From Amoebophrya sp. A120 (taxonomy: Eukaryota > Protista > Dinoflagellata): a stretch of DNA of 64,000 bases. The first letter of the stretch is position 1, and every line of letters begins with the position of its first letter. Below are positions 1 through 49,800 of the stretch, in pieces. The stretch spans positions 1,331,386-1,395,385 of the forward strand of contig CAJINV010000016.1 of assembly GCA_905178155.1 (NCBI GenBank), in the 5' to 3' direction. Under the pieces are notes generated by a model, which was not told the DNA's origin, made no database searches, and saw only the letters and a list, made by a program, of their open reading frames with translations. The translations under genes were made by a program, and so were the position numbers.

Positions 1-807
1 CTCGTCTCCGAAAAGTAGTAGCGGTCAGGCGCCTTTGGACCACGGGACTTCTACTGCTTCAGGTTCGTTATATCTGCAGGTGCGATGCCCTCAATGCATC
101 ATCATGTCGCCTGGTGACCAGAGCACCATCAGCATCTCCGACGGCACTACACAATGGTCGTCGACGTGTGGTAGTTTTCGTGTCTATTACAAATATCACT
201 GTACCAAGATCTGCTTCTGCTGATCCATGCCTCTGCCCACTCTTACGCTCCCGAGGTGTGATCGTGAAGAAAGAAAGTGAAAACAGATGAGGAATAAAGC
301 TGCTTCTCCGCTCTTCCACTTAATAATAATAGTCTCTCTGTCGAAGCGAATGCCTGCTCTTGATATGAAAAAAAAGGGCTGCGTTGCTCTTGTCTCCCGT
401 CGAAGGGGCTGTGTAAACAAATGGCACCGAAGATGACCCACGAAGAGTGGCCCATCAAAGGCAGCACGACTTGCCAAGAAGCAAGACCGGTGGAAAACCT
501 CGGCACATCAAGGCTGGCTGCAAAAGCAGGAGGTCGTGGTCCTCCTGTTGAGCGATAGTTTATACGTTTTCGTCAGTAGTTCTTCCCGTTGCACTACCAT
601 TCTTGAAACATAGATCTGATGAACTTCCCGCGTTCAGACAATATCCTACAAGTTGAAAAACCAAATAAAAAATCGTCTTCGCTTTACGTTTGGTAAAAGC
701 CTTATTTGCGTAGTTTCATTTTCCGTCGTTCTTCGAACTCCAACTTCCAACAGTCGCCGCACTACGGAGTAGACTCCCAATGAAATAACTGATCTCCCTC
801 CTATCCT

Positions 808-4445: not shown

Positions 4446-4956
4446 TTTTGGACAAGCGCGACGGCGCTTCCGAACTATTGTATCTACTGTCGTGACGAGA
4501 AGTAAGGTCACATAAAAAGGTTGCTCCTTTCATTGTTCTTGGGCGGAGCTGTTCAAAATCCAAGCTGGCTTGACGTTTTCGACGTAAGTTCGATAGGGCT
4601 CAGCAAGGTGAACAGCTCTGCGTCCTCTGCCTCTCAATACCAAGCGAAGTCGGGCACCCTTTTAGCAGGAGTTGTAGCTCTCTCATCCACATCTACAACA
4701 CGACTCACCGAGCAAAAACAAGGATCAACTCGAAGAAAGGGTCGATGGGGTACCGTGATTATCGCAAAACAAAACTATGGCCTAGATCAAGAACGACTAC
4801 GACAATAGGAACAACAAGGAAAAACGATAATGTGCGACAGGCGTGTTTGGCGCAACGACCACGAACTCGTGCCCGTTCGGGAAAGAAAAGATGAATTCGG
4901 GTAGTTGTCGTGGAGCGGGGAAAGATTGATTTTCATACTGCTCTTCATCATCATGC

Positions 4957-27797: not shown

Positions 27798-29937
27798 TCA
27801 CGCCCCCACGAAGCCCATGTCCGGGGAAACCATCGTCGATGTGTTCCCTACATCAACGCCTTTCTCATTTTGCCACGCCAATTCCGCGTCCTGCAACCGC
27901 ACCTCGCCGCATCCTTCTTCCAATTTCCCGATGTCAAAAACACTCTCGTTAAATTCGTTTTTCAAAGTCAGTTTCACGTAGTCCACGTCCTCCGGCTTCA
28001 CGAAGATCGCCATCCCAATGCCGATATGCATTGCAAGAGTAATATCGCACTCATTGTAGTAATTTTTGCAGTCATGCATGTCAAAACTCTTTCCGAACCT
28101 GAAACGACATTACAAATTCTATTTCTTCTACTTCAAGTTTTCATCTTCTTTCCGAAATTTGTGATGCTATTTGCACAAAGTGCGATACTTTTGCAATGCA
28201 TATCCGCAATTGAACGTCCGCGCCATTTCCATGGGGTCCAACCCGCCGGAGGAGAACAGCCAGTGCAGAATCGGGGGTAAAGTCCAGTTCGCCGCGGAGA
28301 GTTTCGCGTCAATGTTGTCCGGTAGAATTCTCGGGATGTTCTCCAACAGACCCCCGCCGGTGATGTGCGCCGCGGCCAGAATTTTCTCCTCCTGCATGAG
28401 TTTCAGCAGTTGCTTCACGTAGATTTTTGTCGGTAACAGCAAGTAATCGCCCAGTGACATCAAGGGGTCGAAGGGCGCTGGGTCCTGGAACGTGAACGGT
28501 TTCGCGGTCTCCGGGTTCAAAGTGGAAGACACGATTTTCCGTGCTAACGATAATCCGTTGCTGTGGACGCCGGACGAGCCCAAGCCTAAAATGCAAACCC
28601 CCGGTTTGAGTTCGCTCGTTCTCGGCAGAATCTTACTCCTCTCCACAATCCCGACGGAAAACCCAGCGACGTCGTATTCCCCAGGACTGTACAACCCCGG
28701 CATCTCCGCCGTCTCCCCGCCGATCAATGCGCAGTTCGCCTGCTTACACCCGATATCAAATGTAAAAGTGTCTGGGTTTGGAAAAGTGTAGGCTTGTCAT
28801 GCAGATTTTCCATGGCCCATGAGGTCTGGAGTGCGGGACTTAGCATGACAGACTCTGCGAGGTCTCTGCCATGCCTATCCTGCATGAGAAACTCCCCTCC
28901 AACTTGGTCAGAAGTGTACAGCTTTTGGCACTCATGCAACACAGATTTTCGCATGCTTCAGATTTACCATGACAAGTTGGAATCTTCCAGACCCAGACAT
29001 TTTTGCAATTCATGCCCGATCGTCACCCCCTTGATCACTTCCGTCGCTTGCTCGACGGATAACTTCCCGGTCGCGAATATCCTGAGTAAAAACGTCCCCA
29101 CGCCAGAGTTGTAATGCAGATTTGCAAAGACAGGAAGACTTGTAATGCGCATCCCCATGAGAGCCATTTCCAATCGTGTTTTGGAATTTGTGATGCTGTG
29201 AACAGGATGAGCAGATGAATCTGCGATGCGGCTGCACTTGCTGACCTGCACTACACTGCGGAGTGCAACTTGTCATGCGTGACTCACAAAACTCCTAGGT
29301 TTGTGTTGCAAAATCCCCATCCTGACTCTGGTGTGGGGACGTTTTTACTCAGGATAGCGAAGTAATCTAGGAAATACAGCGGTTCCGCACCGTGAACCAA
29401 GCAGTCGTTGACACACATCGCGACCAAATCAATGCCGATCGTGCCGTGCTTGTTCAGATTGTTCGCGATGAGTAACTTCGTCCCCACCCCATCCGTCCCG
29501 GAAACTAGGACTGGGTCCTTGTAGTTCACCGATTTCAAATCGCAGAAGCCGCCAAAGGATAATTCCTTGCCGAATTCGCAGCCCGGTCTTGCCTATCAAA
29601 TGTAAAAATGTCTGGGTCTGGAAGAATTCATGTTTGTCATGTTTGTCTGGCATGACTCTTAAATCTGTCATGCACGTTACGCAAGAGCTCCGCTTTTCAT
29701 TTTCTGTGATGCAGGAACGCAGTTTGTCATGCAGAATAGGCAACACCTAGAAGCTCAGAAACTTGTCATGCTGAGCCAGCATTTGTGGCCTCCCCATCAT
29801 GCGCCACCCAGCATCACAAGTTTCCAGACCCAGACATTTTTACATTTGATATTGCCGTCTGCTTCAAAAACGGTTTGATGTTTTCAACCAACGCATTCCC
29901 GGCGTCGATATCGACCCCCGCCGCTTTGTAGGTCAAT
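27798..29937 (-). CDS. purM: AIR synthetase domain of the fusion
   Basis: [61 protein letters not shown] (after splicing). Confidence 0.96.
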
Positions 29938-32900
29938 TTCTGTTGCTGATTCGCACCGGAACTGCTAGAAGAAGCTCCAGAGGAGCTACTTCCGCAAGAT
30001 GGTGTGATGAACCGGTGCTGCCTCGTGCCCATGGCAGCGATATCGGACCGGTAGAAAGCGTTTTCGAATTGCACTTGCTCCACCCCGAGATACGCGAGTT
30101 TGATAGCATGTTCTAAAGTGCGGCCAAGAGCAGAAACGGCTAAAACCCTGCCGCCGGACGTCACAGTCTCCGTGTTCTTCTGCTTGTTCTGGTGGGTGTT
30201 CACAGAAGAGGAAAATGTGGTCGGAGACGCGTTGGGACTGGTGTTGCTCTGTTTCGAGTTTTCCCGGCTAACCGCGGCTTCCGATGCCGTGGTGGAAGCG
30301 GAGCCGGAAGTAGATCCATTCGACGTTGACACCACTTTCGTCCCGGCATGGAAGGTCCAGATGGACGGCATCGACGTCAACTTCTCCAACCCGGAAATCG
30401 TTTTGTTTTTCTCGTAACTATTCGGATACCCGCCGGACGCGACGACAACGGACACGCAGTACCCCTTCGCAACCACCAACGCCGCCTGATCCAGGCGTCC
30501 CTGGCAGCAGAGAACCAACGCCTGGTAGAAATCCCCTTCTAATAGCGGCATCATATCGCAAGGAAAAATCCTCCCTCCCCATATTGAAGGGGTAGGCTTT
30601 CGAAAATTTGTGTTGCTGATTTGAGGTCACAAATCACGTTTGTGTTGCAAGAAGACAAGGGCAGCAGCTTCCGTCCCATTATGGAGGCGGTTTGTCATGC
30701 TGTTGAGCCAACATCACGGACGCTTCTCATGCTAAGCGCCTAAGTCAAAGCATCTCTGCTCAGGCTTGATATGGGTCTGCAGTCCACTCTAGCAAGACAG
30801 ATGTGATTTGTGTACTCAAATACAGCAACACAAATTCCGCTTTCGCTATGGGGAGGGGGGATTTTTCCTCACAATACATCACCGCCTGCGTTTCCGGATC
30901 CCCGAATCGGCAGTTGTAATATCCCGTGCAAAAGTATCGTACTCGTAGTAATTGCGTTTATGCATTACAAATCCGATTCTCAAGGTAAACCAGCATTACA
31001 AATGCAATTTGTAATGCTGGGGGAATTTGTAATGCGATTTATACTAGTACGATACTTTTCCAGTTCATATGTACTCCAAGACGTTGATAACCGTTTTGCT
31101 TTCGTCCTGCAAATCCCCCGACAACATCAAGCCCGCGAACAAAACCCCTACAAACGGCCTCCCCTCCTCCCGCATCCCGTCGACGCAGGGGGTTAAGCAG
31201 GTCTGTTTAATCCGCTCTAATAAACCCGAAGAGATGTCGTTCACGGGCGCAAACGCCCCCATGCCGCCAGTGTTCGGCCCCTCGTCGTTGTCGAAGGCGC
31301 GCTTGTGATCCTGCGCTAATGGTAAGATTTTGATGTTTTTGCCATCGGAGAGAGCTAGGACTGATAATTCCCTTCCCGGCAGCATCTTCTCCACCACGAC
31401 TTCTTCCCCCGCAGAGCCGAAATCGTTCTTCATCAACATCCCAGTCAGCGCCTCCTTCGCCTCCTCAACTGATTTCGGCACGATCGCTCCCTTCCCCGCG
31501 GCTAGGCCAGATGCCTTCACTACTACTGGCCAGTGTTTGTCGATGTAGTTCTTCCCGTGTTCCAGACCTTCTTCTCCTTCTTTCCGTCGGAAAATCTCGT
31601 ATTCCGCTGTTGGAATGTATGCAATGCAAATTTTCCGCACATGTACAAAATGCATGACAAATTCCGCCACTTTGGAGTTTCCAAGAACTTCATCTGAACT
31701 TGTCAAGCTAACGAAGAATGTTGAGGGAAAGTTTTGTGATGCAGAAACAGCATCTTTACTGGACAATCGGCGCAGCTGATGAAAAATTTCGTCCGGATTT
31801 CGTCCGTTTTTTTGATATTTTTTTTGAAAATTTTTTTTTTGCCCCTTTGGAGGCAGCCGGCTTTGTGCCCTCTCCAGCATCTATTAGCGCAGTGGGGCGT
31901 GCTCTGGGCCTGAATGTTCCCGGCCCTCGCTCCCTAACCCACGGCCACACCGCGGGCGTCGGCAGGATGTTTCGCGCGGCTCTTCACTCGATCACAGCCG
32001 CTAGATCACAGGTCGCCGGACCTTAGGCGCCCAAGAGCTTGCCGCAGCCTGCTCACGCATCCTCTCGAAGAGGCCCAAAAGCCTGCCATTGCCTAGGGCT
32101 TTTCATGTGGGTGCCCATGCAGTGGCCCCTCATTGCTTTGAGAAGGCGGCGCCGCATCTTTTGAGAAGGAAGCGACAAGCGATCAGCCCCCGGCCTTTGT
32201 CTGTGGGTGGGTTGGTGGGTTCGCGCCTTCACAAATCGGGGGGTTTTCTTCTAGCAAAGACGGACAACAAAGACGAAGGCCAAAAATAGCTTTTTTTTTG
32301 TTTCCGAAATATCTTTTTTTTGGCTTCCGAAATATCTTTTTTTCGTCTCCCAAAATATCTCCGGATTTTCCCGAAATATCTCCGCGAGCGACGAGGAAAG
32401 CAAAAAAAACTATCTCAAAAGTTATTTTAGCGCCGATGCTATGGAGATATTTCGGGAGATATTTCTGGAAATATTCCGAGATACTTCCGCGGAGCTTTCC
32501 GCGACACTTTCTGGCCAAAAAGGCGTCGCCCAAAATATCTTTTTTCGGCTTCCGAAAATATCTTTTTTTGGCTTCCCAAAATATCTTTTTTCGGCTCTTC
32601 AAAATAGCTTTTTCCTTCTAGACCTTTTGGTCTGCGGATAAGGAGGGGGAAAAAGAGGGACAATCAAGATGCCCGAGGCGGCTACTTAGGGCTCCGTCAG
32701 GGTGCGCGCAGCAGGTGCGTGCCCAATGTTGCGTTGCCCTCAGGGTATCAGCGGCGCCCACCTAGGCGGGACGCCCGCTCGCAGGGCCGGCGCGGGCAAC
32801 TTAAAAACCGCTAGGGAGAATGGGGGCCGGGGCGTGACACCTAGAGCTCGCGCAGCATAGTGCAGGGAAGCAGCGCGCAGCGTGTCATGCCGCCTGTGCC

Positions 32901-35900
32901 TTAGGACGCCGCGCAATCGCGCGGGCTCTATGCGCTAGAACAGGCGATGCGCCTCGCGGGGAATACCGCCGCCGCGCCAAGCAAAGGCTCCCCGGCTTTG
33001 GCAGGGCGGGCGTGCAGCATTTTATCGAAGCAAAATTTTTTTTTGAAAAAAAAAATCTTAAAAAAATCGGAGATAATTTCAGATTGGGTCCCATCGCCAT
33101 CCAGGAGCGCCCGTGATAACGTTTACGTGTACGGGAAAAACTCTGGATAGAATGTTCCACCGCTTCATGAAATCTTTCGACCACGCTTTGGATTCCTCGA
33201 GTATCACGCCCTTCTTCGTCGGACCGAAAACTAGGATTTTCTCTTTCGTCAATGAATCCGTAATGCCATCAACCAAAGGTTGCTCCGGGCCAACGACGAC
33301 CAAAGAGATTTGCTTTTGCTTGCAGAAATCCCGCAATTCCTGGAAGTCGGTTTTGCTGTTGATCGGAACATCAGATCCTACGTTGAGAATCTTCCGACCG
33401 CTTCCTCCGTTCCCCGGAATGACATAAACCTTCTTCACCTGCTTCGACTGGGACAAGCGCCAGGCTAAAGCGTGCTCCCTCCCTCCAGACCCAATCACCA
33501 CCACCTGCTCCCGCTCCGACCCGCGGGTCGAGTAAGACCTTGTCTGCCTCCCCTCGTAGAAGTTCACGAACGCTTGCAAACTACATCTAATCCCCCCAAT
33601 CGTCGGGAAATCGCCGGTAAAGACCCAATCGCCGGTCGAGTCCGGAATCGCGCGGCGCATGCCCTCGACCGTTTGGTACAGCATGGTGACTGGCGTTTTG
33701 ATATCCTTGTCCGTGACGAGTTCCGCGATCTTCGCGGATATTTCCTCTTCGCTAAACGGAGAATAAATGTCCTTCACGTGATTGTAAAAGCTGCCGCCGG
33801 AAATCTGTTGTTGGTAAAAGCTGCTGTTTTGATTGTAGATCTCCTCTTCAGTCGACCGGAGCGTCTCGACGCATTTCCGGTAGGTTTCCTCCAAAACGTG
33901 CTCCATTTTCTTATCTTTCAACAGTTCCACTGCCGCCCGGAACGCGACTAGATTGTCCAGTCTGCTCATGTCAATCCCGTAGCAATCCGGGAACCGGATT
34001 TGCGGTGCGGAAGACACGAATAAAATCCTCTTCGGCTGCAACGCGTCTAATCTCGGGATCATCGACATCTTCAGCGTAGTCCCGCGGACAATACTATCGT
34101 CGATCGTCACTAAAGTCGTCTCCCCCCGTTTCACGATCCCCGGCGTCATCTCATACGCGGTAGATGCGAGTTGACACCTGCCCTCGTCTTTGCTGATGAA
34201 CGTTCGGAGCTTCGCGTCCTTGAAAATCAGTTTTTCCACCGGGATCTGGCACTGCTGTCGTTGGTTGATGGAATTGGAGCTGTTTGTCGCATTCGATGCT
34301 GTGTTGCTCGAGAAGTTGAACCCGAATTCCGCGTTGGTTGGACTAGAAGACTTCATCCGCTGCCAGATCAAGTTGTTAATCTCGATCGACAAACCGGTCA
34401 AAGCGATTTCGGCCGTGTTGGGAACGAAATTCAAAACCGAAGTTTCCCAGCAGTTCGCGATGGAGTCCAGGACCGGCGCGGCTAGCTCCCGACCGAGAGC
34501 GAGCCGCTCTCTGTAGATGTCCGGGTCGTTGGCCCTTGAAAAGTAGATTCTTTCAAAGACGCACTTTCTTGGAGTTTCCGGTTGCAAAATGCAGCGCTCG
34601 ATGGGGAGAGAATTCTGCTCGTTGGCTTTTAGGAGAAGCTTACGCACGGACCGCCCGTGATCAGAGGGGGTCTGGAAATGCCTCAGGAATGCTCCAGGAA
34701 TCTGCTCAGAAATGTCCCGACTTTGCATATATCGCCGCGCATCGGAGTCATCGCCTTGGTCGCATTTATACGTCGCACATCACTGATGCGCGACACGATG
34801 GGCACGCCATAGCAGCGGAATGACGGGCCACGGGAATTATCTGCGCCGTCCTGGACGACCTACATTGGCGGACCGCCGGCCGGCGCGAAGATTGGGCGCG
34901 GGCAATAGATATAGACCCAAAACCACAGACCCGGCGAACCCCCGGGGCGCGCGCCCTACGCCACCACGCTGCAAAACTGAAGCGCATGCCGCTCGCGTCA
35001 CACGCGTGACACGATGGCGCCACGGTTCGGAAAAACGGGGAGCGCCCCTCGGAGGGTGTTGCGCGCTGGTTAGGACAAAGGTGGTCGCCCAGCGCGCAAA
35101 GCTGGTGGCCGGCTGGCAATCCGTGCGACGGCTGGTGGCCGGCTGACAGGGCGCGCATGCGAGCGCGCGGCCCACACAGTGCGGCCCGCCCGTCCGAGCA
35201 CGCGCCGCGGCCTGCGTCTGTTGCGCGGGCCGTGTTTCCTAGTTTCTTTCTGCGAAAATACAAACCAGCGCGCCGGCGCGCCTTTGCTTGTGCGCTTGTA
35301 AGAAACACGCCAAGCAGGTTTCCTTGGGGAAAACCGAGAGGGGCCCTGGCTTCTTCCCCCCAATACGATTTCCCTGAAGAAAGAAAAACCGGGCCCAACC
35401 CTCCCCAGGCCCCCCAATCGGCGGCCTTGCCTTGGGTGCCCAGCTAGGTAGCGCGCCGGGCCAGCGGCCTGCCCCTGCAAAGGCACACACCGGGCCGCCT
35501 ACCATCAAAGCAGTGCGGTAGGTGTCGCCGGCCAAGGTCGCACGCGACAGCTGCGGCGCGCGAAGCTTCTACAAACATCCTGAGCCCGGCGGCCGGGCCG
35601 GCCGGGCTTCCACAGCCCTACTCTTTACCCGCAAAAACCTGCACAACCCTGCGCCGGACTCTCCGCCCGCCACAGTTCTTCGCCCCTTCGTTCGCTGCGT
35701 GCTCACTGGCCGCGCCCAAATCCCGAAGAACTGCCCGAAGCGCCGGCCGCCCATTCCGGCCCCCCTCCGTCGGACCGGCCGACAGTATTCACGTGCCCAG
35801 TCTTAGCAATCGGCCTGGGCGTGCTCTGCAGGACATCCATCCGAGATATCAAAAGCGCGAGGAGCGCTCTGGGCCTGCTCTGTAGATCACTCCGCAACTG

Positions 35901-38900
35901 CTCTGGAGATGCCGCGGCCTTGCAACATAACACCGGAAAAGACGGCAATACTGCCGCGCCGCGGATCTTCTTCGCAGTTTCGCAGAAATTTTGAGCCTTT
36001 GCAGCCTTCACGCAAAGGCATCTTTTTCACAGGGTCGGACTCGTTCGCCACGGCGCAACGGCCCGCGCCCGAGATCGGTCGCATCAATCTCGGACGGATT
36101 TGCCATCGGTTCCCTTACTCTCGGGTCGCTGTGGCGATCGTTATGAACTTGATCCGCGCGGCAATTCTTGCCGAATATATGAGACGAATGAGGGGCATCC
36201 TGAAAAGCTGAAAAAAAACCAGCAAGGGCACTGCGAAACCCGCAAAAAAGCAACACCAGAAAAAGCCGAAACGCGGAAAACCGTGGCGCCATTTCTGCTA
36301 TTGGGGAAAAAATTTCGCGGCTTTTGCATTTTTCTCCTTCAGAAAAAAACCTGAAAGCTTTTGCATTTTTTTCCTTCAGGGAAAAACCTAAAAAAGTTCG
36401 CGCGATTTTCTTCTAGAAAAAACCCAAAAAAGCTGCGCGCGATTTTCTATTACAAAAAAACCAAAAAAGTTGCGCGCGATTTTCTATTACAAAAAAACCC
36501 AAAAAGCTGCGCGCGATTTTCTAAAGGCCAGAAATGTGAAAAATCGCCGGCCTGATCGGCCTCATGCCATCGGGGAAAGGCAGAGAAAATGGCCCGTCTT
36601 CGGTTTTGGTTTTTTTCGAGGGGGGATTCCCGCGCAACTTTTTTGGGTTTCTTTTTTTGTAGTAGAAAATCGCGCGCAACTTTTTTGGTTTTTTTGTAGT
36701 AGAAAATCGCGCGCAGCTTTTTTGGTTTTTTTGTAATAGAAAATCGCGCGAACTTTTTTAGGTTTTTCCCTGAAGGAAAAAAATGCAAAAGCTCTCAGGT
36801 TTTTTCCCCAAAGAAAAAAATGCGAAGGCCTCGGCATTTTTCCTCCCTTTACAGAAATGCGGCACCCGGCAGCGCGTGTGGCTTCGCTTTGGCCTTTTTT
36901 TTTGCCTACTTTCTTGGCCCGGTCCTTTCAATTTTCTTCGCTTCATTCGCGATCTTTTTACTACCGTAGCCCGATTCAGATTCACCATGATTCTGATTCT
37001 CATTCGCGACGTTTCTGATTCTGATTCACAACATGTGGCCTCCACAAGCCAAATAGCTTACAACATGTGGCCTCCACAAGCCAAATAGAGTTTTGCTCTA
37101 CGCAATATCCACAAAGGGCCAGCTGTAATCGGGGCGCTGAAGCTCCTCAACGCTCATCATCGTCGGACTCTGGGTCTTGGGGCCGCGCTCGCGAACTCCG
37201 GCGGCTGCTGCTTCATCCGGCTGCTGGCCGCCGCTCTCGTTGGTGAAGGAGTGCCTAAGTCGTGCCGAGGGAGAGGAGCGGCGCCACACATGGCGCCAGT
37301 GGCTGCGCCAATGAGTTCAGCAGCCCCATTAACTTCATACGTTTCGGCTTTGCCTAGAAGCCGCTGCAACGCCTTCGCCGGCACTTGCATCCAAGCAAGG
37401 CCAACACGGCCCGCGCGGGGGCGCCTGCCTGGTTGTCGGCCGGCGGCCGGTCCGGCTGGCAGAAGCCAGGAAGGGCTCGCGGGCTGAGGCAGGCCCTCGC
37501 CCCAGGTCCAAGACTGCCTTGGATGCCAATCATAGACGCACACACGTGGCAGTCCCCTGGGCTTTGGCGGTAGAAGCGAAGGGAAACTGACTGAAGCAAT
37601 TCTGCTTGCCACCAAACCACCCAAGACCAGCAAGAGACGAGAAAAAACGAAGCCGGGTCCGCCCGTGTCACGCGCGTGACACGGTGGCCCTGTCTGTGAT
37701 CTAGAGAAGCAGGGCAGCATCCCCCTCGCGCCAAGGGGCGCGCCTGCGCGTGCGAAAGCAATGCGCCACGACAATGGGCTGACGAGGCGCCCGGCTGTGG
37801 CCAAGCGGCGCCGGCAGGCGGCCAACCAATGGGAGGCCGGCAGTTGGTTGCTTGCCCTCCCGGGTGAGGCCGGCCGTGCCTGCCGCCCACAAGGGAGGAG
37901 GGCCAGAATAGCAGTCCGCCGCGCAGAAAGCAAGGCCGGGCCCGTGCCTGGCTGCCACAGAAACAAAGAAAGGAACAGCGGCAAGGCCAGCACACTGCCT
38001 TCTTACAGAGGCAGCCCCGCTGAAGGTCCCAACCTGTCAGAGCAGGCACTGAACCGCCGGGGCGGCGGAAATGCAGGGGCAGACGGGGCGCCTGCAATGC
38101 TTCGAACCGGGCTGCGGACAAGACGCCGGCGCGCCTGCGACAAAACGAAAGCGGGCACAGATAGGCCCGACACAAGTGTGGCGCTGCGGCACTTCGCGTC
38201 CATATATGCAAGGGGAGGCCGGCAAAGGGATAAGGGGCAAACGGGCGGCGCCCGAACGTCAACGCCAGCCGCGGCCCGCATTGCGCGCCACAAAAATGCG
38301 CCAAATACGGCAGCGGGCGCCGCGTCTCGAGGAAGCTGCTTTGCGATGGCCCGGCTCGACGCCTTGTGTGCCCCTCTTCCCTGCAACCACAATGAGGGGC
38401 GCCGGCGTTGTGGGAATTGCCTCCGCCTTACATTCCCGAGGCCATTTCTGAGACATTTTTAAAGATGGCGGGATCACGGGCGTGGCAGTGCATAAGAAGC
38501 GCGTGCCCGGGGGTTAGCTCGTGGATTTCCGCATGGTCTTTCACCTGATGTTGTCATGCGGAGGAAAGTAATCGCACAATGTTGATCAGAGCGTGATCGA
38601 GTTTGACTTTCAACATCAAGAAGTGAGACCTGGAAAAACAAAGGTCTGTCATGCAGCTACTCAGCGCGACCAGTTGTCATGTTGATGTTTAGCATAAGTA
38701 GCAGAAGCTGCACTCTAATCTACCTGAAAAGCGCTCGCAATGACCCCTCGTTCGCTCGCCACCACGATGAATTCCTCGTCCATCCAGTAGAAACACGGCC
38801 GGATCTATCCACAAGGAACTGACCATCCCCATCCAATTTGTCATGCGCCACATGTATGAAGTCCTGTGTTTGTCATGCCTAAAATGCACGAGGATGCTTG

Positions 38901-41900
38901 TTTTTTCCTGGATAGGATCCCGTGCCTATCCCGAATTGCGAACGCATCTCCCGTCCCAAGCGTCCCGACCATCGCAAACCCGCCATCCCAGTCCTTCGCT
39001 GCTTCCTGTAAGACGAACCCTAAGTCCAAATTCTCCTCCACCAGCTCCTGACACTTCTTCGCGACATGTCCCTGCGAGCTAAAGTTCACGTACCTTCTGT
39101 TGTGCTCCGCGTCCAGCTCCTGTCCGATGATCTCCAGGCAGGTCACCGTGTCGGATTTCGCCCGTGGGTGCTGGCCGGACTCGACCAAACGGTCGAACAA
39201 GTAGTCGGAATTCGTCAAATTGAAGTTCCCGGCCAGTAGCGCGCATTTGCTCCGCCAATTGGATTCGCGCAAAAAGGGGTGTAGTTGGTCAATGGAGTGA
39301 GAACCGAAAGTCCCGTACCGCACGTGTCCCAAATACAACTCACCTACGAATGACTTCTGCGACTCCGGCACCGTGGTTTCGAACAGATGTTCAATCGCGT
39401 TTTTGTCGCAGGATTTGCACACATCGACGTATGGTTCCCCCGGATCCGCGTCGGTTCTCACACAGGCAATCCCCGCGCCGTCCTGTCCCCGGTTCCGTTG
39501 CTTCTCGAGCATGACATACATCAAATCCACCCCGACCTTGCTGTCGATGCCGTACTTTTTCTGGTAGTACTCCTGCGGCTTCCGTAGTTTGATCATCGCG
39601 ATCCCGCACTCGTTATGAACTGCAAAAGTATCGCACTCGTATAAATGCATTTGATTTCCATTTCCTCAGCATGAGAAATAAAATTTGTAATGCTGATCTG
39701 CCTCAAGAAAAAGATTTGTAACGCATGATTGCAATACGAGTACGATACTTTTGCACAGGATACTCGTGTTTGGGCCGGTCGTCCGCGATTTCCGTTGTGG
39801 ATTTCCCGATTTGATAAGGAGCCGCTTCAGAATCGGTGGTGGGTTCCTTCGTGGAGATGGAGGAAGCGGGCTGTTTGGAAGAAGATTTGGAAGCTATTCC
39901 CTGCTCCCCCGCGACGATACTAGCCACCGTTTCCACACCGAGGTCCGAACAGCACTTAATCACCTGGATCAAGGCTTTCCGCTCCAATGCTTGGACTTTG
40001 TCCCGGACTGTGACACAAGTATCCTTCTCCGGATCGATCCCCGAAGCGATTTTTTGCAGAATCACCGGCCCCTCGTCATACCCCCCGTTCGTGACAAAAT
40101 GCACCGTGCAGCCGGATTCGGTTCTTTTATTGTCCAAAACGGCTTGGTGCACGTGATCGCCGTACATGCCCTTCCCGCCGAACTCGGGGAGCAAACTCGG
40201 GTGCACGTTGATCACTTTGTTCTGAAGTTGTTCGGGAATGAGGAATTTGCACATGTAGCCGGCGAGGACGATCAAGTCGACTTGGTAGTTGGAATTGAGG
40301 ATTTCGATCACGTCTTGCGACATTTTTTCCCATTTATCCTCATCTGTAGCATTTCCTTTGTACTTCCTGCTCTCCACAACATGGACCGGAATCCCAGCTT
40401 TCTCCGCCCGTTGAATTCCCTTCGCGTCTTTCCGCGAAGCGATGACGACGGAAACGGAGCAGGAGGGAAGGGTTTTGTCTTCGATTTTGTCCAAAATGTT
40501 TTGCAAGGTAGTACCAGAACCGGAGAGGAGGACAGCCATGCGGAGGATCGGAGGTGCCGCAACTGCAACTTGCGCATCTACGTCAGAAATTTCGTCCGCT
40601 TTCTCGTAGAATCGCTTGATCGAAGTTGTGGTTGCTAGTCTTCCAGTCGCAATCGCACCGTTCTCCGACTCCGGACTGGTGGCAATCAAACCGGCCTTTT
40701 TCGTCGGAGATGGGATCTCCGAATCCGAGATGATCTGCAGCAGCGATTTTTTCTCACAACCAGCCTCCGCTTTCCTCGTTTTCAAAGCCCACTCGTAAGC
40801 GTTCCGGAACAACTTCACCCACGGTGTGTAGCTCACGTTTTCATTCACCTCGGACGCGATGGTCGGCATGCCGCCACAGTTGTTGATCGGAACCTGCCAG
40901 GAGATGAAGCTCCTCTCCGGGTGCGGCATGAAGGCCAAATGCCGGCCGTCGGAAGAGAGAACACCAGCAACCCCGTTTTTCGACCCATTCGGGTTCATCG
41001 GGTACGTCTCCGTCGGCTTCCCCTCGTCGTCCACATAGGAGAAACACGGCTTGCACTTCTCACCAACAGCGTTGCCCTCCTGTTCAATCTCAAACTGCCC
41101 TTCCCCGTGGGAAATCCAAACTCCTAAAACCGAATCAGTCAGCCCGTCTAACCAAACAGAGTTCGTCTTCGTTGTTTCCTCCGGTGCGTCTTCTTGGAAA
41201 GAGCATTTCACCGAGCAAAACCGGGACTCGAACCGGCCGGATTTGTTGTGCTTCAGTTTTACCCCCTGCCCGAGCCAATCCAGTTGGCTCATGAGTTGGC
41301 ACCCGTTGCAAATTCCCAGGGAAAACGTGTCGGGTCTGGATTTGAACAAATCAAACTGCTTCTTCAACGCTTCATCACAGTTGATTTTCATCGCCCAGCC
41401 GGTAGCGGAACCGAGCGTGTCCGCGAAAGAAAAACCGCCGACGAAAATCACACCCTGAAACCGGTTCAGTTGAATCTTTCCGGATTGCAGATCAGACATG
41501 GTGACGTCCCACGGCTCAAAACCGACTGCGGATAAAGCCCAGGACATCTCCCGTTCCCCGTTGGAACCTTCTTCGCGCAGAACAGCGACGGGGATTTTCG
41601 GCGATTCGTCGGTTGATTTCTTCAAAAAGTCGAAATCCAACTTCTCAAAGTTATCAATTTTGAACTTCGGTCCGGTTCTCGTCAGCAATCCCATCCTTTC
41701 CTCTTCCACACAGGTTTTCTCGCACTGCTGCTTCTCCAACTCGAACGAAGTGGACTCCCAGGTGTCGCGGAGTTGGCGCATGGAGGTTGCGGGGAGCAGC
41801 TCCTGTTCGCGCGTCGTTTTAACGATGATCACGTCGTCCTCTAATGTTCTTCCAACCGTGACGGCGTTCAATGCGTCAATGACTTCAAACGCGTCTTCGT

Positions 41901-44900
41901 CGTCAACTTCGAGGAGTAGACCGGGTGCTTCGGAAAACAGGAAACCGAGGGCCTGATGAGATGACGATGAATTTGATGTATCTATTTATATTTTTGCATT
42001 TCAACGAGCATTCTGACTTCAAGCATGCTTACTACACAACACTGCAAGAGAAATCATGCACCCGCATCTTCAATTCCAAATCTTACCTCCGATTCTGAGC
42101 AATTCACACTCACGTCCGCCCCGAAGTTCCCCGCGAAACACATCTCCAGCAAACAGGTCAAAAACCCACCGTCGGAAATGTCGTGGACGGAAAGAATTTT
42201 GTCAAACACCTTGTCCGTCTGGAAAATTTCAAAAACCTTCTTCAACTTCTCCAAATCCACATCGCACGCCCCGCAAACGTTCCAGTCGTAGACCTGCGCG
42301 AGCGCCGTCCCGGCCAACTTCCACTTCATTTCCCCCTTCACCAAAGGGGAACTGGAATCGATTCTCTCCATCCCGAGATCCACAAAGAGAATCCGTGACC
42401 CCGCCTTCTTGAACTCCGGCGTAATCTTTCTCCGCACGTCCGGCACCTTCGCGTAGCAGGTTAAGACCACCTCCCCCGGGCACTTCACGACGCCGTTGGT
42501 TTTCGTTCGCGTCGCCATGGATAACGAGTCCTTCCCGCCGTCGATTGCGAGGCCCAGGTACTCGATAGAGCTGCACAGGGCCTCACACACGTCGTACATT
42601 CGCGCCCCTTCGCCGGGAAACTTCGCCGGCCACATCCAATTCCCACTTGCGCGGACGTTGTCTAACCCACCTTCAATCTGTACGCCGATGAGATTCAAAA
42701 CTGCCTCCGCAACAGTGAGTTTCGCCTGCTTCTGGAGGTCGGAAATGGTCCCGGAAAGACCTTTTAGCGGCTGCTCCCCGATCGAAACCGCAGCGCCGTC
42801 CGTCGTTAACGGGGAATGCGCCACGACCGCACAATCCGCGAGAGGTGTGTATGGCGTTCTCAACTGTTACATAATTCTCAACTATTACATAAATTTGTGA
42901 TGCAAGAATGGCAAAAGTGAAAGGGGTGACCTTGCGCGTCTTGCATGACAGATTCGGCCCAGATTCTCAGCCTGTTTGGCTCTTCGAGAATTTGATGTCA
43001 TGCAAAGCAGCTTGATCGTGTCAATTCTGAGTGTAATTTTGCATGACAAAAAATCGTGTAACAGTTGAGAATGTAACATTTGAGAACGCCATAGTGTGTG
43101 CAGGGGTCCAACGCATTGCTGTTGCGCGACTAAGCCGGTGACGGAGCGGTCGACTTTGTTGGTTAAGAACCTCTTCGACCCGACGGAAATCAAGCGTAAA
43201 ATGCGATCCAACGCCGCTCCGACGGAAGCGGTTGGGGAGGGTTTGACCGTGATGTTTTCACCAGATGAATCCTTCTCCGCCAACTCCGCCGCCAGGGACT
43301 TCGCTGGCACATCCGTCGGCGGCGTGCCGCAGAAGGGGAGCGGGGGTTGCAGACTGTCGATCGGGTAGGGGAATCGCGGTTTGATCCGGTCGGAGACAAA
43401 AGTTTTCTGCGGCATCTTCCCCAAAACCGCTTCTAATGGTAAATCCACGATTTTCTCCTCCCCGTAGTGGACCACGATTTTTCCATCCCCCGTGATTTCC
43501 CCGACACAAGAGAAGGACAATTGCTCCCGTTTACAGATCTTTTCAAACAAATCCAGATTTTTGCTGTCTATCAACAACGCGTCGTTCTCCTGGAATTCCG
43601 CGACCCACAGCTCCAACGCCGTCATGGTGTTGTCGCCGATCAACATTTTGTCCAACTGGATCTTCGCCCCAGCTGGGTACGCGATTTCCTTCAAAACGTT
43701 CCCAGATCCCCCCGCGCCCTGGTCGTGGATGGACAAAATCGGATTTTTCTCCCCCAATTCCAAGCACGCCCGGATCACACACTCGCACTTCCGCGCCATC
43801 TCTGCGTCAGCTCGTTGCACCGCGTTGAAATCCAGCTCGGCTTTGTTGTCGCCCGCCACCATGGAGCTGGCCGCGCCACCGCCAACCCCGATCCGGTACG
43901 CCGGGCCGCCGATTTTGATGATCAGGTTCCCCGGTGCTGGCTCGTGTTTTTTCACGTGCCGGTGGAGCATCCGGCCCAAACCGCCGGAAAACATAATCGG
44001 TTTGATCCACTCGACGCGCTCGGTTGTGGGTTTATTTCCCCCAACATCTTCTTCTGAAGCAGGACTTTCGACGATCGATCCGTAACTCCTGGTAAACCCC
44101 GCAACCAGTGGTTCGCCGAACTTGTTCCCGTAGTCCGATGCGCCATTCGAGGCGGAGACCAAAATGTCCAGCGGTTTCGCCATGTTTTCCGGGTAAAGCG
44201 GCTCGTTTTTCGACGTTTTATCGGAGATTGACAATTCGCTACACTTTTCCAACACTTCCTTTTCCCACACACAACCGGCGTAATTCTCCGTCTTCGGGAG
44301 ATCTAAATTCCCCACACAGTACCCCGCAATCCCCGCTTGCACGTACGCGCCGCAGCCCGTCGAGTGGTTGTCCCGGATCCGCCCGCCTGACCCCGTTTCC
44401 GCACCGGGAAGAGGGGCGATCCCGCAGGGGAAGTTGTGCGTCTCCGCGGTGAGGGTGATGTCTAAATCCTGTTCGGTCAATTTGTAGTATCCAAAGCAAA
44501 TTTCCCGTACGCACCACACAAATCGAAATCAATGCGGTCTCCGCATGACAAAATTTGCCTTCAATCCTACTCAGCATGACAGACAGCGAACTCTAAGTTA
44601 GCCAAGTTGTCATGCAATTTGAAAGAGTACAGGAAATTTGTATTGCATATGTACGGAGCGGAGATCATCCCGTTTCCTCCCAGCGGCAGGGGGATTTTCA
44701 CCTTCGCACCCCGCTGCGCGGAACTGTTGTCTTCGAACGCGATGGTGGAGCAATCGAGTTCCTCGTTTTTTTGCTTCAATTTGTACGCGTTTTTCACGAT
44801 TTGGAACAAAGTTTTCTCCTTCTCAATACCGTCAATCATCATTTTCCCGCCGAAAAACCAATGTCGACTGTGCTCCGAATTCCCCTGCGCCAGGTCGAAG

Positions 44901-45733
44901 AGCTCGATGTCGGTCGGGTCCCGTTTCAGATTCTCGGTGTACAAGCTGTAGTAGTAGGAGAGGTCGTTCTCGTCAAAACCAAGGGACTGTTCCTCGGAGA
45001 AAGCTTTCAAAACGGCGATCCCGGCATCCTTTGTACCCGCGGAGAGGACCCGGATGGATTTGACACCGGAGGAAGATGTGGAGGGGGTTGTGGTGTCAGA
45101 GTCGGTCGTCGCTTCAGAAGACGAGCTGGAGAACAGCGTAGCAGCAGCATCTTTGTCCTCAAACTCGTACACACATTCTGTCATGCGGTCGTGGACCAAG
45201 GACTCGAAAAATTTCTTCGCTGCAGCACCATCGCCAGCGCTTGAGGTCTCTGGTGCCTTCACCAGAAACCGTTTCGTCACTTCGATCCGCTCCACATCTG
45301 CTAGCCCGCACCCCTTCGCAATGCTCACCGAGTGCGTGCTCTGCGCGGAGGTGAATTGTTGCCGCGGCCCAACTTCGACGAGTATCCAGGAAAAAACACC
45401 CGTCGCCATCCAATTTGTCATGCATAACACGCATAAAATCCAGTCTTTGTCATGCATAAAATGGATGGGGACGATGGGTTTCTTTCTGCGAATAACGAGG
45501 AAGCTGCTCGTACTACTTCCACTGTTCTTTATCGAAGTTCCTGCACAGTTTGTGATTTGTAGGATTTTGTTCAAAATGTCGTTCGTTTCGTCAATGCCCA
45601 AAACGTGGTAACAGAGTTCAGATTCCAAAATTTCAAATCCGGCGGTGGAGACGGCGTTCTTCTGGGCGAAAGAAATAGGCGGTGCTTCGGCTTTGCGAAA
45701 CAGCTTCAGGGACTTCTTGATGTGCTCCACCAT
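27798..45733 (-). CDS. Pentafunctional de novo purine biosynthesis protein FGAMS-GART-GPAT-GARS-AIRS (PurL-PurN-PurF-PurD-PurM), 16 exons, ~3,314 aa
   Basis: Removing 13 TIR introners (+1 TSD each) and 2 GT-AG introns (41953-42086, 38545-38723) gives a 9,945-nt frame from ATG 45733 to TGA 27798. PurL-PurN, PurF-PurD and PurD-PurM are each joined within single stop-free exons; PurN-PurF join in frame across 39614-39762. Confidence 0.88.
28025..28202. mobile_element. TIR introner, family B, degenerate TSD gccga/tccgc
   Basis: Removal plus 5 nt gives the conserved FNCG|IGM. Confidence 0.9.
28754..29014. mobile_element. TIR introner, family A (right end ATG), TSD cccga
   Basis: Join TIG|[16 protein letters not shown]. 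Confidence 0.92.
29078..29356. mobile_element. TIR introner, family C (TATCCTGAGTAAAAACGT.CCCAC.CCAGAGT), TSD gcgaa
   Basis: 279 bp; near-identical copy at 56645-56923; join DYFA|TGKL. Confidence 0.95.
29594..29851. mobile_element. TIR introner, family A, TSD ttgcc
   Basis: Perfect ~30-bp TIR and TSD; join QTA|RPGC. Confidence 0.94.
30035..33510 (-). CDS. purD: GAR synthetase domain of the fusion
   Basis: [66 protein letters not shown] (after splicing), TSGGRVL. Confidence 0.96.
30554..30876. mobile_element. TIR introner, family D (TAT...AAAAATCC.CCCTCCCCATA), TSD catca
   Basis: Homologous to 53554-53875; join QAVM|PLLE. Confidence 0.93.
30920..31069. mobile_element. TIR introner, family B (inverted), TSD tgtaa/tgtac
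   Basis: Splits the PurD signature LEY|NCRFGDPE. Confidence 0.93.
31618..33149. mobile_element. 1.5-kb composite introner (family J-like ends) with a nested insertion, TSD gaatg
   Basis: Perfect TSD; join RWNI|PTAEY. Interior ~31760-33105 has degenerate T-tract/A-tract inverted arms, GC-rich blocks and tandem TTTTTCGGCTTCCGAAAATATC units (32285-32615). Confidence 0.9.
33545..39608 (-). CDS. purF: Amidophosphoribosyltransferase (Ntn glutamine amidotransferase + PRTase) domain of the fusion
   Basis: KHE|[66 protein letters not shown]. Confidence 0.95.
36300..36850. repeat. Long foldback palindrome built from ~30-bp tandem A-tract/CGCGCG units
   Basis: 36359-36411 is the reverse complement of 36739-36790 (the same peptide [17 protein letters not shown] appears on both strands); centre ~36575. 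Confidence 0.9.
37030..37088 (+). repeat. Tandem duplication of caacatgtggcctccacaagccaaatag
   Basis: Two adjacent identical copies. Confidence 0.85.
38806..38914. mobile_element. Short TIR introner, family H (109 bp), TSD ggatc
   Basis: Join RHGI|RPCFY; homologous to 45383-45494. Confidence 0.92.
39614..39762. mobile_element. TIR introner, family B, TSD ctcgt, immediately before the PurF catalytic Cys codon
   Basis: Perfect TSD; join PKHE|CGIA. Confidence 0.94.
39955..40545 (-). CDS. purN: GAR transformylase domain of the fusion
   Basis: [55 protein letters not shown]. Confidence 0.95.
40790..45733 (-). CDS. purL: FGAM synthetase domain (large-type PurL with glutaminase) of the fusion
   Basis: [78 protein letters not shown]. 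Confidence 0.96.
42850..43093. mobile_element. TIR introner, family K (TATGGCGTTCTCAA.TGTTACA), TSD gtgtg
   Basis: Join GPLHT|PLADC (conserved FGAMS motif). Confidence 0.94.
44488..44649. mobile_element. TIR introner, family J (TAT.CAA..CAAATTTCC.GTAC), TSD tgtag/tgtac
   Basis: Join SAPY|KLTEQ leading into AETHNFP. Confidence 0.9.
45383..45494. mobile_element. Short TIR introner, family H (112 bp), TSD acgag
   Basis: Join SFLV|EVGPR; element+TSD is 117 nt and stop-free, so it is hidden inside ORF 44567-45742. Confidence 0.9.
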
Positions 45734-46847
45734 TGTGGGCAAAGCAGTGGAAGGCTGCGGTCTTCCGGTAATGTAGAAATAGAATCAGTATCAGATACAA
45801 CTTTTTGACGAAAACACAAAACCAAAACTGAAGTCGGAAACAACAAACAAAACGTTCGATCTTGCTACAATTCGTTTTTTGTGGTCATGACGTGAATTTC
45901 ATGATCTTGCCAGCACATCCATGATGATATCATGGCCCGGTGCCAGTGCTGGGAGCAAGAGCTACTTCTATCTTGCGCTTGTTTTCCCGCCCTGTCCACC
46001 AGTGTAACCACTACAAGTACAAGCTGAAGTCTTTGTAAGTGCATCATGTTGCGCATGGCTTTGATAGTCCGCTCTCGCTTTTGATTTCCACCGCTCTAAA
46101 GACCAACCAGCACAGACATAGGCTCTTCCTGATGAAAAGAAGACCTCTCTTCACTCCGCAATCCATCCTACCCGCCTTGCGAACAGGAATCCCCGCGCTC
46201 TTTCCTCAGAAGTTGCGCGAACAAAGCACCCTGCAATCAAACCGGGCGGAGGTCACGAGCTTTTTTTTTCCTATTTCTCTACAGCATTCAACTCAAATGT
46301 CGTGTGTTTGTGTTGGTGTGTGTTTTTTTCAGAAACGCCAATGATTTTGTTGTTCTTGTTACTCTAATTGAAAAGTTGCTGACTTCTCTGCATACTCTGC
46401 TATGAATGTAGCTGAGAAAGCACAAGCTCTACAGTTGCTTTTGCAGCAGACCTAGGCTGTGCTAATCAAAGCAAAAAATCCGACTCAGCAAGAAATATTA
46501 CGACGAGAAAGTGCAGCTTTTACTTTGGTGTACTTAATTTTGAAGATTTTGTCTGCGCAAAAATGTGACACCTCTCATGAGCGTGGGCGTCTTTCTTTGG
46601 TAGAATAACTGTAGAAACAGTCAACTGGAACTGACAAAACTGTAGGTCTTCGAAAAGAACTCTGTACAATGAAGAATCTCTGTACATGGATGAGGTTTCT
46701 TTGGGGGAGAAACGACTTACTGTAAAAGCTACTCAGTTTGAAAACTAGTACCGGGTTGGGGTACAATATGAATATCTAAAAGAAGTGGTAGTTCAAACAA
46801 AAATGCGTGCTGTGAAAAAACTTTAATTGTCGTCGTGCTTATGATTT

Positions 46848-49800
46848 TTACACCATATTACCAGCGTTTGCGTTAGCGCCTTTGGGACTGGGCCGACCAG
46901 TGGCAGGAGAGCCAGGAGATGCGGTTTTGGAGCCGGGTGGGCGCTTTGGCTGCGTCGAGGGCGAAGAACTCGACGAACCAGCCGAAGGACTCGATCCGCC
47001 TGAGCTTCTTGACCGTGACGTCATCGCGAAATGCTGCCCCTCATCAATACTGCCAATGCTCTCATAGCTGTCCCTCCCCCCAGATGCCCACTGCAGGCCG
47101 AACTCGCTGTCCCGGTTCATGTTCGTGGTCCGCTCGCCCATATTCATGGAAGCGACGTTCCTGCGTTGAACCGGCTCGGTTGTCGCTCTTGTCACGTCCT
47201 CCATCCCTTCCGGCTCATCCAGTGTCGAAACCATCCGCTTCGGCCTGGCTACCGGCCGGCTCGTGTCATCATCGGCATTCATCATGGAAATCGTGTTTCC
47301 CCTGGTCATGCCCCTGCCCATGCTCGGCCTGGCCGTCGGCGGCTTGTCCATAATGGCTGGCAAAGGGTCGTTTTCCTGATCGTGATCCGGGGTTCGATGC
47401 CCGGTTGGGGTGCCTGGTTCCGGTTCCGCTGTGGTTCGAGCGTCTTTCTCAGCTTTTTCCTTCGCCATGCGCTCTTCCTGCTCCTTCGCTTCCTTCAACT
47501 TCTTCTCGATGTGCTCCTGCATCAAGCTGTCCGGAAGCTCAATAGCATTTTTCAAATCCCCGTCTTTGGACTTGGGGGAATTATCGCCGTCTTTCTTGTT
47601 CCCTTCTGAACCGTCGTCACCTTCACCCTCCTTGTCCGGCACTTCAAACCCGAGCTGCATCATCTTCGTTGCGTACCACCTGTCAACCACGTTCGCATAC
47701 TCATTGTCCGCGTAGTAGAAATCCACTAACCCGAACGGCTTGAACGCCTTCTGCCACAGGAACAAAACGGACCCGATCAACCCCGTGTACCCCGCCATCG
47801 CACCGAGTAACGCCAAGAAGTCACTAAACGACAGCAGCGGCAACTCCTGAAACCTTTGGCTCGCGGCGTCGATCTCGAAGATGATACGCACACTCGCCGC
47901 GGACTTCATCGTGTAGTCCGCTTGCTGAAAGGAAATGTCCAGAGCGGAAATTGAGTTCAGCCACCTGGTGAGTTTAATCGTCCCGGTCCACTTGTTCACG
48001 TTGTAGACCGGGTTGACCTGCCAGACGAGCTTTATCAGAATCTTCGTCATCGGCTTAAGTCCGATGTAACCGTCCTCAGCACTAGTCAACTGACGCAAAC
48101 CCGGCATGATGTCCAAGTCGAGGTTGTCTAATTCCTCCAACAGCAATTCGTACTGCGGGGTCGTGGTCAACGGCCAATGCAAGGGCGCCACCTGTTTCAC
48201 CATGCTGGTCGTTTTCTCCTTGTTCACCCGGATCGACACCCCGGGAAGGATCATAGGGGGGTTCGCGGGGATTCCCTCTGCACACCCTTTGATCGCGTCG
48301 GTGCACACCGCCCGTCCCCTCGCCATCGCTTCCGCGGCCCATAATCTCGGTTGGCCGTCCTTGAAGTCTTTTTGCCCGGCTTTGTACTCTTTCTCGACTG
48401 CGAGGAATTGGGAATCGATCGTCATTTGATACAGCATCTCCACATCGAGAATGTATTCTGGCTTATTATTTTCGTATTCTGTGCTGGCTCTGACGTCCGG
48501 GCTCATCCAGTGCCCGGTTAAGCCGCCTTCGACTTGGAATTCCATAACATTTGCTGGTAAAAAATCTTCCATGCAAAACAGCCGGTATCTGTCTACCGAG
48601 TCGGTTTGCATTTGCTCCTTGGTTTTGCACCGGTTGCCTCCCGGACTGTCCTTGAACGGCGTAATTTTACACGACTTCACGGCTAAGTTATCCGCCTCGT
48701 GGAAGGTCAGCTTGTCCCAAAAGGAGGCGTCGGCAGATTGTGCGGTCCCGAAGAAATTCGTGAGGCGCTCGTTTGCAATGTGGGTCGAGGGGCACAAGTC
48801 TGCGATCGGCACTCTCCGCGGCATCACAAACATGGCCACATGCGCATCCAGCATCGTGGGAGACGAAAATGTTTCCAGAGGCGTTTCGCCCGACCGGTCC
48901 CGAGGCAAGTAAGTCGCACTGGCGTCGCGGAAGAGGTTTATTTGCGATATCGTTTGCACGACAAAGGAAACCACCTTCTTGCTCGGGATCAAAGCGGCGA
49001 CAGAAGCTGCGAACTGGGACACTGCTTCTTTGACGTCGCCTGTGACCGCGGTCAAATGGATTTGGTCGAAGAACCCGAGTTGCTCTAGCTGCGCCTGGGA
49101 CAATAACCCATGCGCGCATTGCGGGACATCCGTGATTCGTGCGTTTGGCGGCCAGTTGGATTCATCAGTCCAATCCTTCGTGCAGTCAGTCTGGTTCAAG
49201 ACCCAGGTTGTAGTGGTTGTGTTGGTGCTGTTGACGGTGAGGAATCTTCTGATTTGTCCCGCGGAAGCAGTGGCGGCGAAATTTTCTGGCTGAAGCTGTT
49301 GCATCGTTGTCGCGTACTCCTCCACAACGTCGTTTAACTGCCGCCACTGGTCTTGACTCAACTTGTAGTTCAAAACGTCTTCGTTTTCTTTCGCCAGCAT
49401 GTGCCGGTAGTTCCGCTTCGTGAACTCCCGCTCAATCGCCATCCAGTCGGTTTGGAGCTGTTCCAACGAGGGGGTGCGTTTGTAGTTCTGTTTTTTCTTG
49501 TATTTTTGTCTTTGTTCCTTCGTAGTAGAGGTTTCGGCTGTGGTCGTTTTCTCCGTGACTTCCACATCGTTTGGATCAGTCATCTCGTCATAGTCGTCGA
49601 CAGAGTAGGGCCTTTCCACCACCTCCTCCCCCGCAGAGGAACTATCAACCCGCCCCGGCCGACCCGTTTTCGGATCGAAGCTCCTGATCCTATCCCGCTT
49701 CTTCCGCTTTGCCATCAAATCATGCGCCGGCCTGCCGTGCCCATCTCGTAGCTCGGAAGAAGACGGCTGGTTCATCTGGTTTTCGCCAGTAGCAGGGAAA

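Follow-up and report, generated by a model that had tools for sequence, protein, structure and literature searches.

How could a PurF domain use glutamine when its nucleophilic cysteine is residue 1769 of the polypeptide that carries it, although the gene product of a class II amidotransferase is expected to have that cysteine N-terminal or behind a short leader? This question is raised by a gene in a 64,000-nucleotide window of Amoebophrya sp. A120 DNA (the window being the whole stretch that was analysed), which occupies positions 27798..45733 of the minus strand, the strand of every feature of this gene given below. When each inverted-repeat element is removed together with one copy of its direct repeat, and both GT-AG introns are removed as well, 16 exons join into a single PurL-PurN-PurF-PurD-PurM frame of 3,314 amino acids with a predicted mass of 361 kDa. 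Thirteen of the 15 introns are inverted-repeat elements and the other two are GT-AG introns; a 5-nucleotide direct repeat is found at all 13 elements and is exact at 10 of them. The spliced model agrees in every letter with the public protein P0123, which bears the label Amoebophrya sp. A120 and the description 'unnamed protein product'.

Translations of the exons match the PurL, PurN, PurF, PurD and PurM families in searches with Pfam and TIGR profiles. PurL (FGAM synthase; 40789..45733, residues 1-1426), whose own glutaminase triad C1253/H1382/E1384 is intact, is followed by PurN (GAR transformylase; 39958..40542, residues 1509-1703; PF00551, E 1e-34; TIGR00639). Beyond a linker come PurF (a Bacteroidetes-type amidophosphoribosyltransferase; 33529..39608, residues 1769-2410), PurD (GAR synthetase; 30024..33513, residues 2416-2905) and PurM (AIR synthetase; 27888..29936, residues 2935-3285). 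The PurF region is interrupted by introns 6-8, and the TIGR01134 profile matches it, with partial exons falling below the cut-off. Once spliced, the linker reads [15 protein letters not shown], and the TGC codon at 39606..39608 encodes Cys1769, which is the nucleophile of PurF and the residue with which the downstream chain is predicted to begin after the cut. An initial sequence-only reading of this DNA had described the same five-domain fusion, with the catalytic cysteine at about residue 1,769 after that linker; the fusion holds as one frame, and the cysteine falls at exactly that residue. The five-enzyme fusion is real.

Contigs from run X1, whose RNA status is presumed, though both GT-AG introns are joined in them too, agree with this model. 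All seven modelled introns within the stretch covered by X1 (introns 1-7) are seen as skips whose sizes agree with the model. One contig of 8,899 nucleotides (depth 40.5) covers 42770-42086, 41951-39762 and 39607-38915 with zero differing letters; it is spliced and spans PurL into PurF with the intron-5 joint inside it, although a contig does not by itself prove that its sequence came from a single molecule. Intron 5 is a 154-nucleotide skip in this contig, with six letters fitting either side of the joint. The contig, the gene model and P0123 agree on a single frame in a single mRNA that crosses the PurN/PurF junction. A contig end at 38495 continues into the next exon, across intron 8, and a further 142-nucleotide skip inside intron 3, one side of which is short, was left out of the analysis. 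X1 contig depth is 4-8 over 43094-45852, the 5' end of the gene, compared with 40.5 over 38915-42770, which is likely due to 3' bias.

Several other features of this DNA are recorded here as separate observations. Intron 8 (34635..38495; 3,861 nucleotides), an inverted-repeat element with a 5-nucleotide direct repeat inside PurF, has inverted repeats that start with TTA, as has been described in strain A25; a second inverted repeat, whose arms measure 208 nucleotides (36290-36859), is nested within the intron. Two elements of 279 nucleotides (29078-29356 and 56645-56923) are 96% identical and form a recent copy pair. The next gene (about 20900-25720, minus strand) may encode an N-terminal acetyltransferase auxiliary subunit, which its product resembles, and an open frame of 1,350 codons at 46848-50900, also on the minus strand, has no Pfam match.

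Relatives of the PurF domain and the end of its leader

The nearest free homologues are PurFs of about 632 amino acids, which come from Bacteroidetes where a source is named. Cys-Gly stands at the start of the domain in 250 of 253 homologues, the remaining three being truncated proteins. In short bacterial-type PurFs the leader residues His(-2), Glu(-1) and Met(-8) are found in 226, 225 and 225 of 226 proteins, respectively. Long eukaryotic-type proteins with an N-terminal PurF, three of them from named dinoflagellates, all have HE|CG (19/19), and their domain order is PurF-PurD-PurM-PurN, in most cases with a second PurM-like domain. Proteins P0124-P0137, P0146 and their relatives are of this core-dinoflagellate type, in which PurF-PurD-PurM-PurN plus a PurM-like domain occupy about 2,150 amino acids and the PurF is Bacteroidetes-type.

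The searches for internal PurF domains covered the Bacteroidetes type. A protein search over lengths of 2,019-5,000 residues gave 17 matches, three of which have an internal PurF: the A120 protein, the A25 protein P0122 (five domains as in A120, Cys1812) and P0121 (PurL end-PurN-PurC-PurF-PurD-PurM, Cys688). P0326 (PurC end-PurE-PurF, Cys252) and the related fragment P0259 came from a profile-free HMMER search, which covered 1.84 billion representatives. Among 80 loci from a metagenome scan, one (L001) is a clade relative and the other 79 carry a free PurF to which neither PurD nor PurM is linked. The upstream neighbours of the domain are PurN in P0123, PurN-PurC in P0121 and PurC-PurE in P0326. 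Protein P0401 was not counted as a clade member, since its PurF-like domain, which follows 157 unrelated residues, has Cys-Ala instead. P0390, which combines a PurF-like glutaminase domain starting Met-Ser with a C-terminal TIR domain, is possibly a defence-type protein.

The clade forms one group beside the dinoflagellate group, with support of 100 in a tree of five rows and 99 in a tree of 11 rows including fragments; these are quick, midpoint-rooted trees that do not prove the donor. We infer that the remaining clade members are Syndiniales. Comparison of the domain orders suggests an ancestral PurL-PurN-PurC-PurE-PurF-PurD-PurM gene that would have been trimmed by internal loss. In L001 the 5' part of PurL (2-991, minus strand) is inverted and lies head to head with PurF (1110-5500, plus strand), with a purine-rich simple repeat between them, an arrangement in which the same fused gene has either been partly inverted or been assembled as a chimera.

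Immediately upstream of Cys1769 lie a Ser/Ala/Thr-rich linker (39784..39951, residues 1706-1761) and then the seven residues DDRPKHE (39763..39783, residues 1762-1768), which fit the D/E-x-x-K-H-E end of free PurF leaders and would form P7-P1 of the predicted self-cleavage site. The A120 and A25 linkers are 18% identical and differ in length; their last seven residues agree at every position (7/7). Linkers of the clade are about 36-95 residues long, Ser/Thr-rich and poorly conserved. PKHE|CG is present in all eight clade members with a visible site (P0123, P0122, P0121, P0001, L001, P0326, P0259 and P0396), and in four it is certainly internal, behind PurN, PurC or PurE. Methionines occur in the linker 19-59 residues upstream in A25 and P0326, and none occurs in the linkers of A120 and P0121. 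An independent start for PurF, which the sequence-only reading had named as evidence against a polyprotein, was rejected for A120, whose product has no Met between residue 1634 (inside PurN) and residue 1769.

The PurF glutamine site is also in place. C1769, R1808, D1811, R1865, T1868, N1896 and D1921 are all present, their equivalence to E. coli PurF (R26, D29, R73, T76, N101 and D127) being taken from alignments, and the position of E. coli G102 is occupied by Phe, as in the free relatives compared. Between A120 and A25 the glutaminase domain has the highest identity (78%, with 61-73% in the other domains). When family-invariant residues are defined as those shared by at least 95% of 70 N-terminal PurFs, the five clade members compared retain 69-74 of the 77 that lie in the glutaminase domain and 73-77 of the 91 that lie in the transferase domain; by this sequence count, glutaminase-domain residues are conserved at least as well as those of the transferase domain. 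A structural model of P0001, built from a 113-sequence alignment (mean pLDDT 80), matches solved PurFs (E 7e-25, TM(target) 0.8). Its predicted architecture is the two-domain PurF fold, glutaminase plus type I PRTase, with the cysteine at the start of strand 1; residues 1-37, leader included, are unplaced (pLDDT < 50).

Possible routes to an active internal PurF

We consider it likely that the polyprotein cleaves itself at HE|CG, between Glu1768 and Cys1769. One spliced mRNA would yield the 361-kDa PurL-PurN-PurF-PurD-PurM precursor, whose internal PurF domain would cut the Glu1768-Cys1769 bond itself to give a 192-kDa PurL-PurN chain and a 169-kDa PurF-PurD-PurM chain, and the N-terminal cysteine freed on the latter would allow glutamine use. 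The chemistry would be the ordinary leader removal of this family, presumably an attack of the cysteine on the preceding carbonyl followed by hydrolysis. The ancestral leader of eight residues, M-S-D-x-x-K-H-E, would then survive as the end of a flexible linker, such that anything fused upstream becomes 'propeptide'.

This reading draws on the conserved leader end, the three upstream enzymes, the kept glutaminase residues, the lack of a Met and the published removal of GPAT leaders. PMC7056826 describes autocatalytic leader removal in eukaryotic GPATs and in many microbial ones, and in the Arabidopsis enzyme even when it is expressed in E. coli. MEROPS family C44 is likewise presented as self-processing, with the cysteine exposed (PMC4756867, PMC9140057), and human PPAT has been observed without its propeptide (PMC13421311). 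For the Bacteroidetes-type PurF clade, a search of structures and literature found no solved structure and no processing study, so leader removal is here assumed from the wider family and would apply by analogy. Documented leaders are about a dozen residues long, and the accessible portions of the sources contain no case with folded enzymes upstream. A point against self-cleavage is variation in the motif: HE|C is present in 57 of the 78 more distant representatives with an alignable start, from 148 new HMMER matches. A second, free PurF might also be encoded elsewhere in the genome. In addition, the glutaminase domain has structural and PRPP-binding roles, which could account for its conservation. 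What the sequence-only reading had said of a self-cleaving protein nevertheless finds comparative support in the motif, the three upstream enzymes and the apparently intact glutamine site, while the special part that it hinted at for the introner is not supported.

We also lean towards a broader proposal, in which linker-PKHE|CG-PurF would be a portable self-cleaving cassette used across this clade of marine parasites. Each gene would hold five to seven purine enzymes, the committed step would be turned on only by the self-cut, and the cargo, PurN, PurC or PurE, would be exchangeable.

Alternatively, the precursor might stay uncut and still use glutamine, with His(-2) or another residue replacing the free alpha-amino base and KHE|CG thereby being a catalytic motif. 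Such an enzyme would agree with the invariance of His(-2) in close homologues and would account for the clade-wide tolerance of an internal position, and it meets no processing data from the Bacteroidetes-type clade in the literature searched. However, some distant members have lost His(-2), and Glu(-1) precedes the cut in processed PurF homologues. Characterised PurFs, moreover, have the cysteine at the mature N-terminus, as the accessible text of PMC7056826, PMC3261824 and PMC13421311 states, and we regard this alternative as unlikely.

An uncut PurF could also work with ammonia only, supplied by the cytosol, by the host or by leakage from the PurL glutaminase, whose triad is intact. There are parallels in the Cys-less E. 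coli PurF, which uses only ammonia, and in archaeal PurF', which is without the cysteine (PMC3261824, in its accessible text). Yet this alternative predicts decay of the cysteine, the leader and the glutamine site, and all of these are kept over long branches, no less well than the site of the transferase. Ammonia made by PurL moves through an internal channel. According to the accessible part of PMC10912719, it is handed to the synthase site of PurL itself. The ammonia-only alternative is weakened by these points, and we judge it quite improbable.

A two-step route has about the same slight probability. A cellular protease would first cut the disordered linker and PurF would then trim the short leader to its cysteine, as happens with a plant transit peptide and propeptide. 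Long, poorly conserved, Ser/Thr-rich linkers would suit such a protease, and the end product would be the same as that of self-cleavage, but no conserved protease site is found upstream of the last seven residues, and one motif closes the linkers behind all three of the upstream domains. Self-cleavage at Glu1768-Cys1769 is the reading that we prefer.

The introner at the PurN/PurF junction

The joint of intron 5 (39609..39762; 154 nucleotides) covers the bond that is predicted to be cut. This intron consists of an introner element of 149 nucleotides (39614..39762) and the downstream copy of a 5-nucleotide repeat (39609-39613), whose upstream copy (39763..39767) comprises the last two bases of the His codon and the Glu codon. 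The element has terminal inverted repeats starting with TAT, an A run and a long hairpin (z = -5.5). Six further copies of its family match over at least 84 nucleotides elsewhere in the window, with 77-86% identity, and each has its own, different repeats. Introners of A120 have been described as non-canonical, multi-copy and hairpin-forming, with inverted repeats that start with TAT, an A run and a direct repeat of 3-5 nucleotides over the boundary; the intron-5 element is alike in all of these features, and no difference was found from that description (PMC7789003). By structure, repeat, family and removal from mRNA, it is an ordinary Amoebophrya introner.

The observed 154-nucleotide skip has no GT-AG register and is a non-GT-AG splice. 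Because of the 5-nucleotide repeat, the joint fits seven equivalent registers, the first of which falls within the His codon and the last within the Cys codon. The claim that the introner sits exactly between the Glu and Cys codons corresponds to one of these seven drawings. Likewise, 39614-39762 had been taken as the intron, but those 149 nucleotides are the element only, and their removal shifts the frame to H-E-T-S-A-G-S-R-stop. Two other excisions were considered. GT/GC-AG splicing offers one in-frame candidate of 148 nucleotides, which would give HEYP-CG and was rejected in view of the observed 154-nucleotide skip, and a 9-mer repeat (39632-39640 = 39605-39613) would remove 127 nucleotides and add nine in-frame residues before the cysteine, a form not seen in the X1 contigs. 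This 9-mer lies in the right inverted repeat of the element and equals the insertion site; other family copies sit in unrelated targets.

If intron 5 were retained, translation would end at a TGA (39703..39705) after 1,768 residues plus 19 intron-coded ones, and the resulting 1,787-amino-acid product would be the PurL-PurN-only protein that had been foreseen from a stop at 39703. No retention of intron 5 was seen in X1, a single contig-level run, and contigs drop rare forms. Position 39722 is C in the window copy and T in the five other family copies compared; all X1 depth at this position (171.6 of 171.6) shows T, and so no X1 contig carries this copy retained.

Could the introner have been co-opted as a switch, in which regulated retention gives PurL-PurN only or an ATG at 39650 starts PurF-PurD-PurM? 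Among the 15 introns, only this one would on retention keep PurL-PurN whole and cleanly drop the downstream enzymes, and if elements fell uniformly, the Glu-Cys bond would be covered by one of the 13 with a probability of about 0.9%, for a site picked afterwards. However, retention leads to an early stop for 14 of the 15 introns, and 7 of the 13 elements contain an ATG from which the frame stays open into the next exon. The ATG of intron 5 is in frame and would give PurF a 14-residue leader with Asn at the invariant His(-2), and it was rejected as a PurF start both for this Asn and because such ATGs are common among the elements. No intron is present at this site in L001, which reads KPKHECG without interruption and appears to be genomic, its frame breaking at a likely intron in PurM, nor in P0001, which lies on a 26-kb contig and was called as a single gene continuing through RPKHECG. 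PMC7789003 describes elements of this kind as recent and specific to a strain, the X1 depth at 39722 comes wholly from the other-copy letter, and PurL-PurN alone would be without evident use when steps 1-2 are missing. With the wrong length, the seven registers, the generic stops, its absence from L001 and P0001 and its splicing in X1, the one informative run, a special role for this introner is not supported; a switch is highly improbable, and the position of the element at the cut site is likely a coincidence.

The elements of this gene occur in conserved motifs more often than chance would have it: mean A120/A25 identity is 0.80 at element sites versus 0.64 overall (P about 0.01), and 7 of the 13 elements, among them that of intron 5, fall in 10-residue windows with an A120/A25 identity of 90% or more, compared with 27% of all windows. 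The element of intron 5 probably inserted recently, at the level of the strain, and thereby duplicated five bases of the His and Glu codons; it is removed exactly and is probably without a regulatory role.

Related systems and implications

Autoprocessing PurF/GPAT enzymes of MEROPS C44 (B. subtilis, Arabidopsis GPRAT2, human PPAT) are alike in Glu-Cys-Gly, fold and glutamine-site residues. The differences are that the leader is about a dozen residues there and 1,768 residues with two complete enzymes here, and that the Amoebophrya domain has the Bacteroidetes-type KHE|CG and a Phe where E. coli has Gly102. Its nearest relatives, the free Bacteroidetes-type PurF (about 632 amino acids) and the core-dinoflagellate fusion, have the same x-H-E|C-G leader end, and the latter also has the same PurF-PurD-PurM order, but in both PurF is N-terminal, mostly with an 8-residue leader, whereas in Amoebophrya it is internal. 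The yeast Arg5,6 precursor is split into two enzymes by a separate peptidase, and in gamma-glutamyl transpeptidase and acid ceramidase internal autoproteolysis exposes the nucleophile, the released part being a subunit of the same enzyme. A split into two or an internal autoproteolysis is thus shared with these systems, whereas the cut predicted here would release other enzymes of the pathway.

Fungal Ade5,7 and animal GART have the PurD-PurM order and a multi-step frame as well, but they combine up to three components (PMC8449271, in its accessible text) and are not cleaved, compared with five here, PurF and PurL among them, and six or more in P0121. The shikimate and tryptophan mega-fusions of Amoebophrya are pathway-wide fusions from the same genus, for which self-cleavage is neither needed nor reported in the accessible text of PMC6482013. 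A full-text literature search, which covered few subscription journals and main texts only, turned up no account of this fusion and none of any internal PurF or of the fused PurF of dinoflagellates, and the accessible portions of PMC10912719 and PMC12017579 hold no precedent.

The introner is ordinary, yet it is removed exactly where no error is tolerated. The comparison also makes testable whether the leader of Bacteroidetes-type PurFs serves processing or catalysis. If self-cleavage proves true, then the N-terminal constraint on class II amidotransferases would be no bar to N-terminal fusion: an enzyme would free itself from folded partners, and a metabolic polyprotein would be processed without a dedicated protease. 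Such a PurF might serve as a self-cleaving tag. The gene would, moreover, represent a natural covalent purinosome for channelling studies of the unstable PRA, since PurF would stay fused to PurD after the predicted cut.
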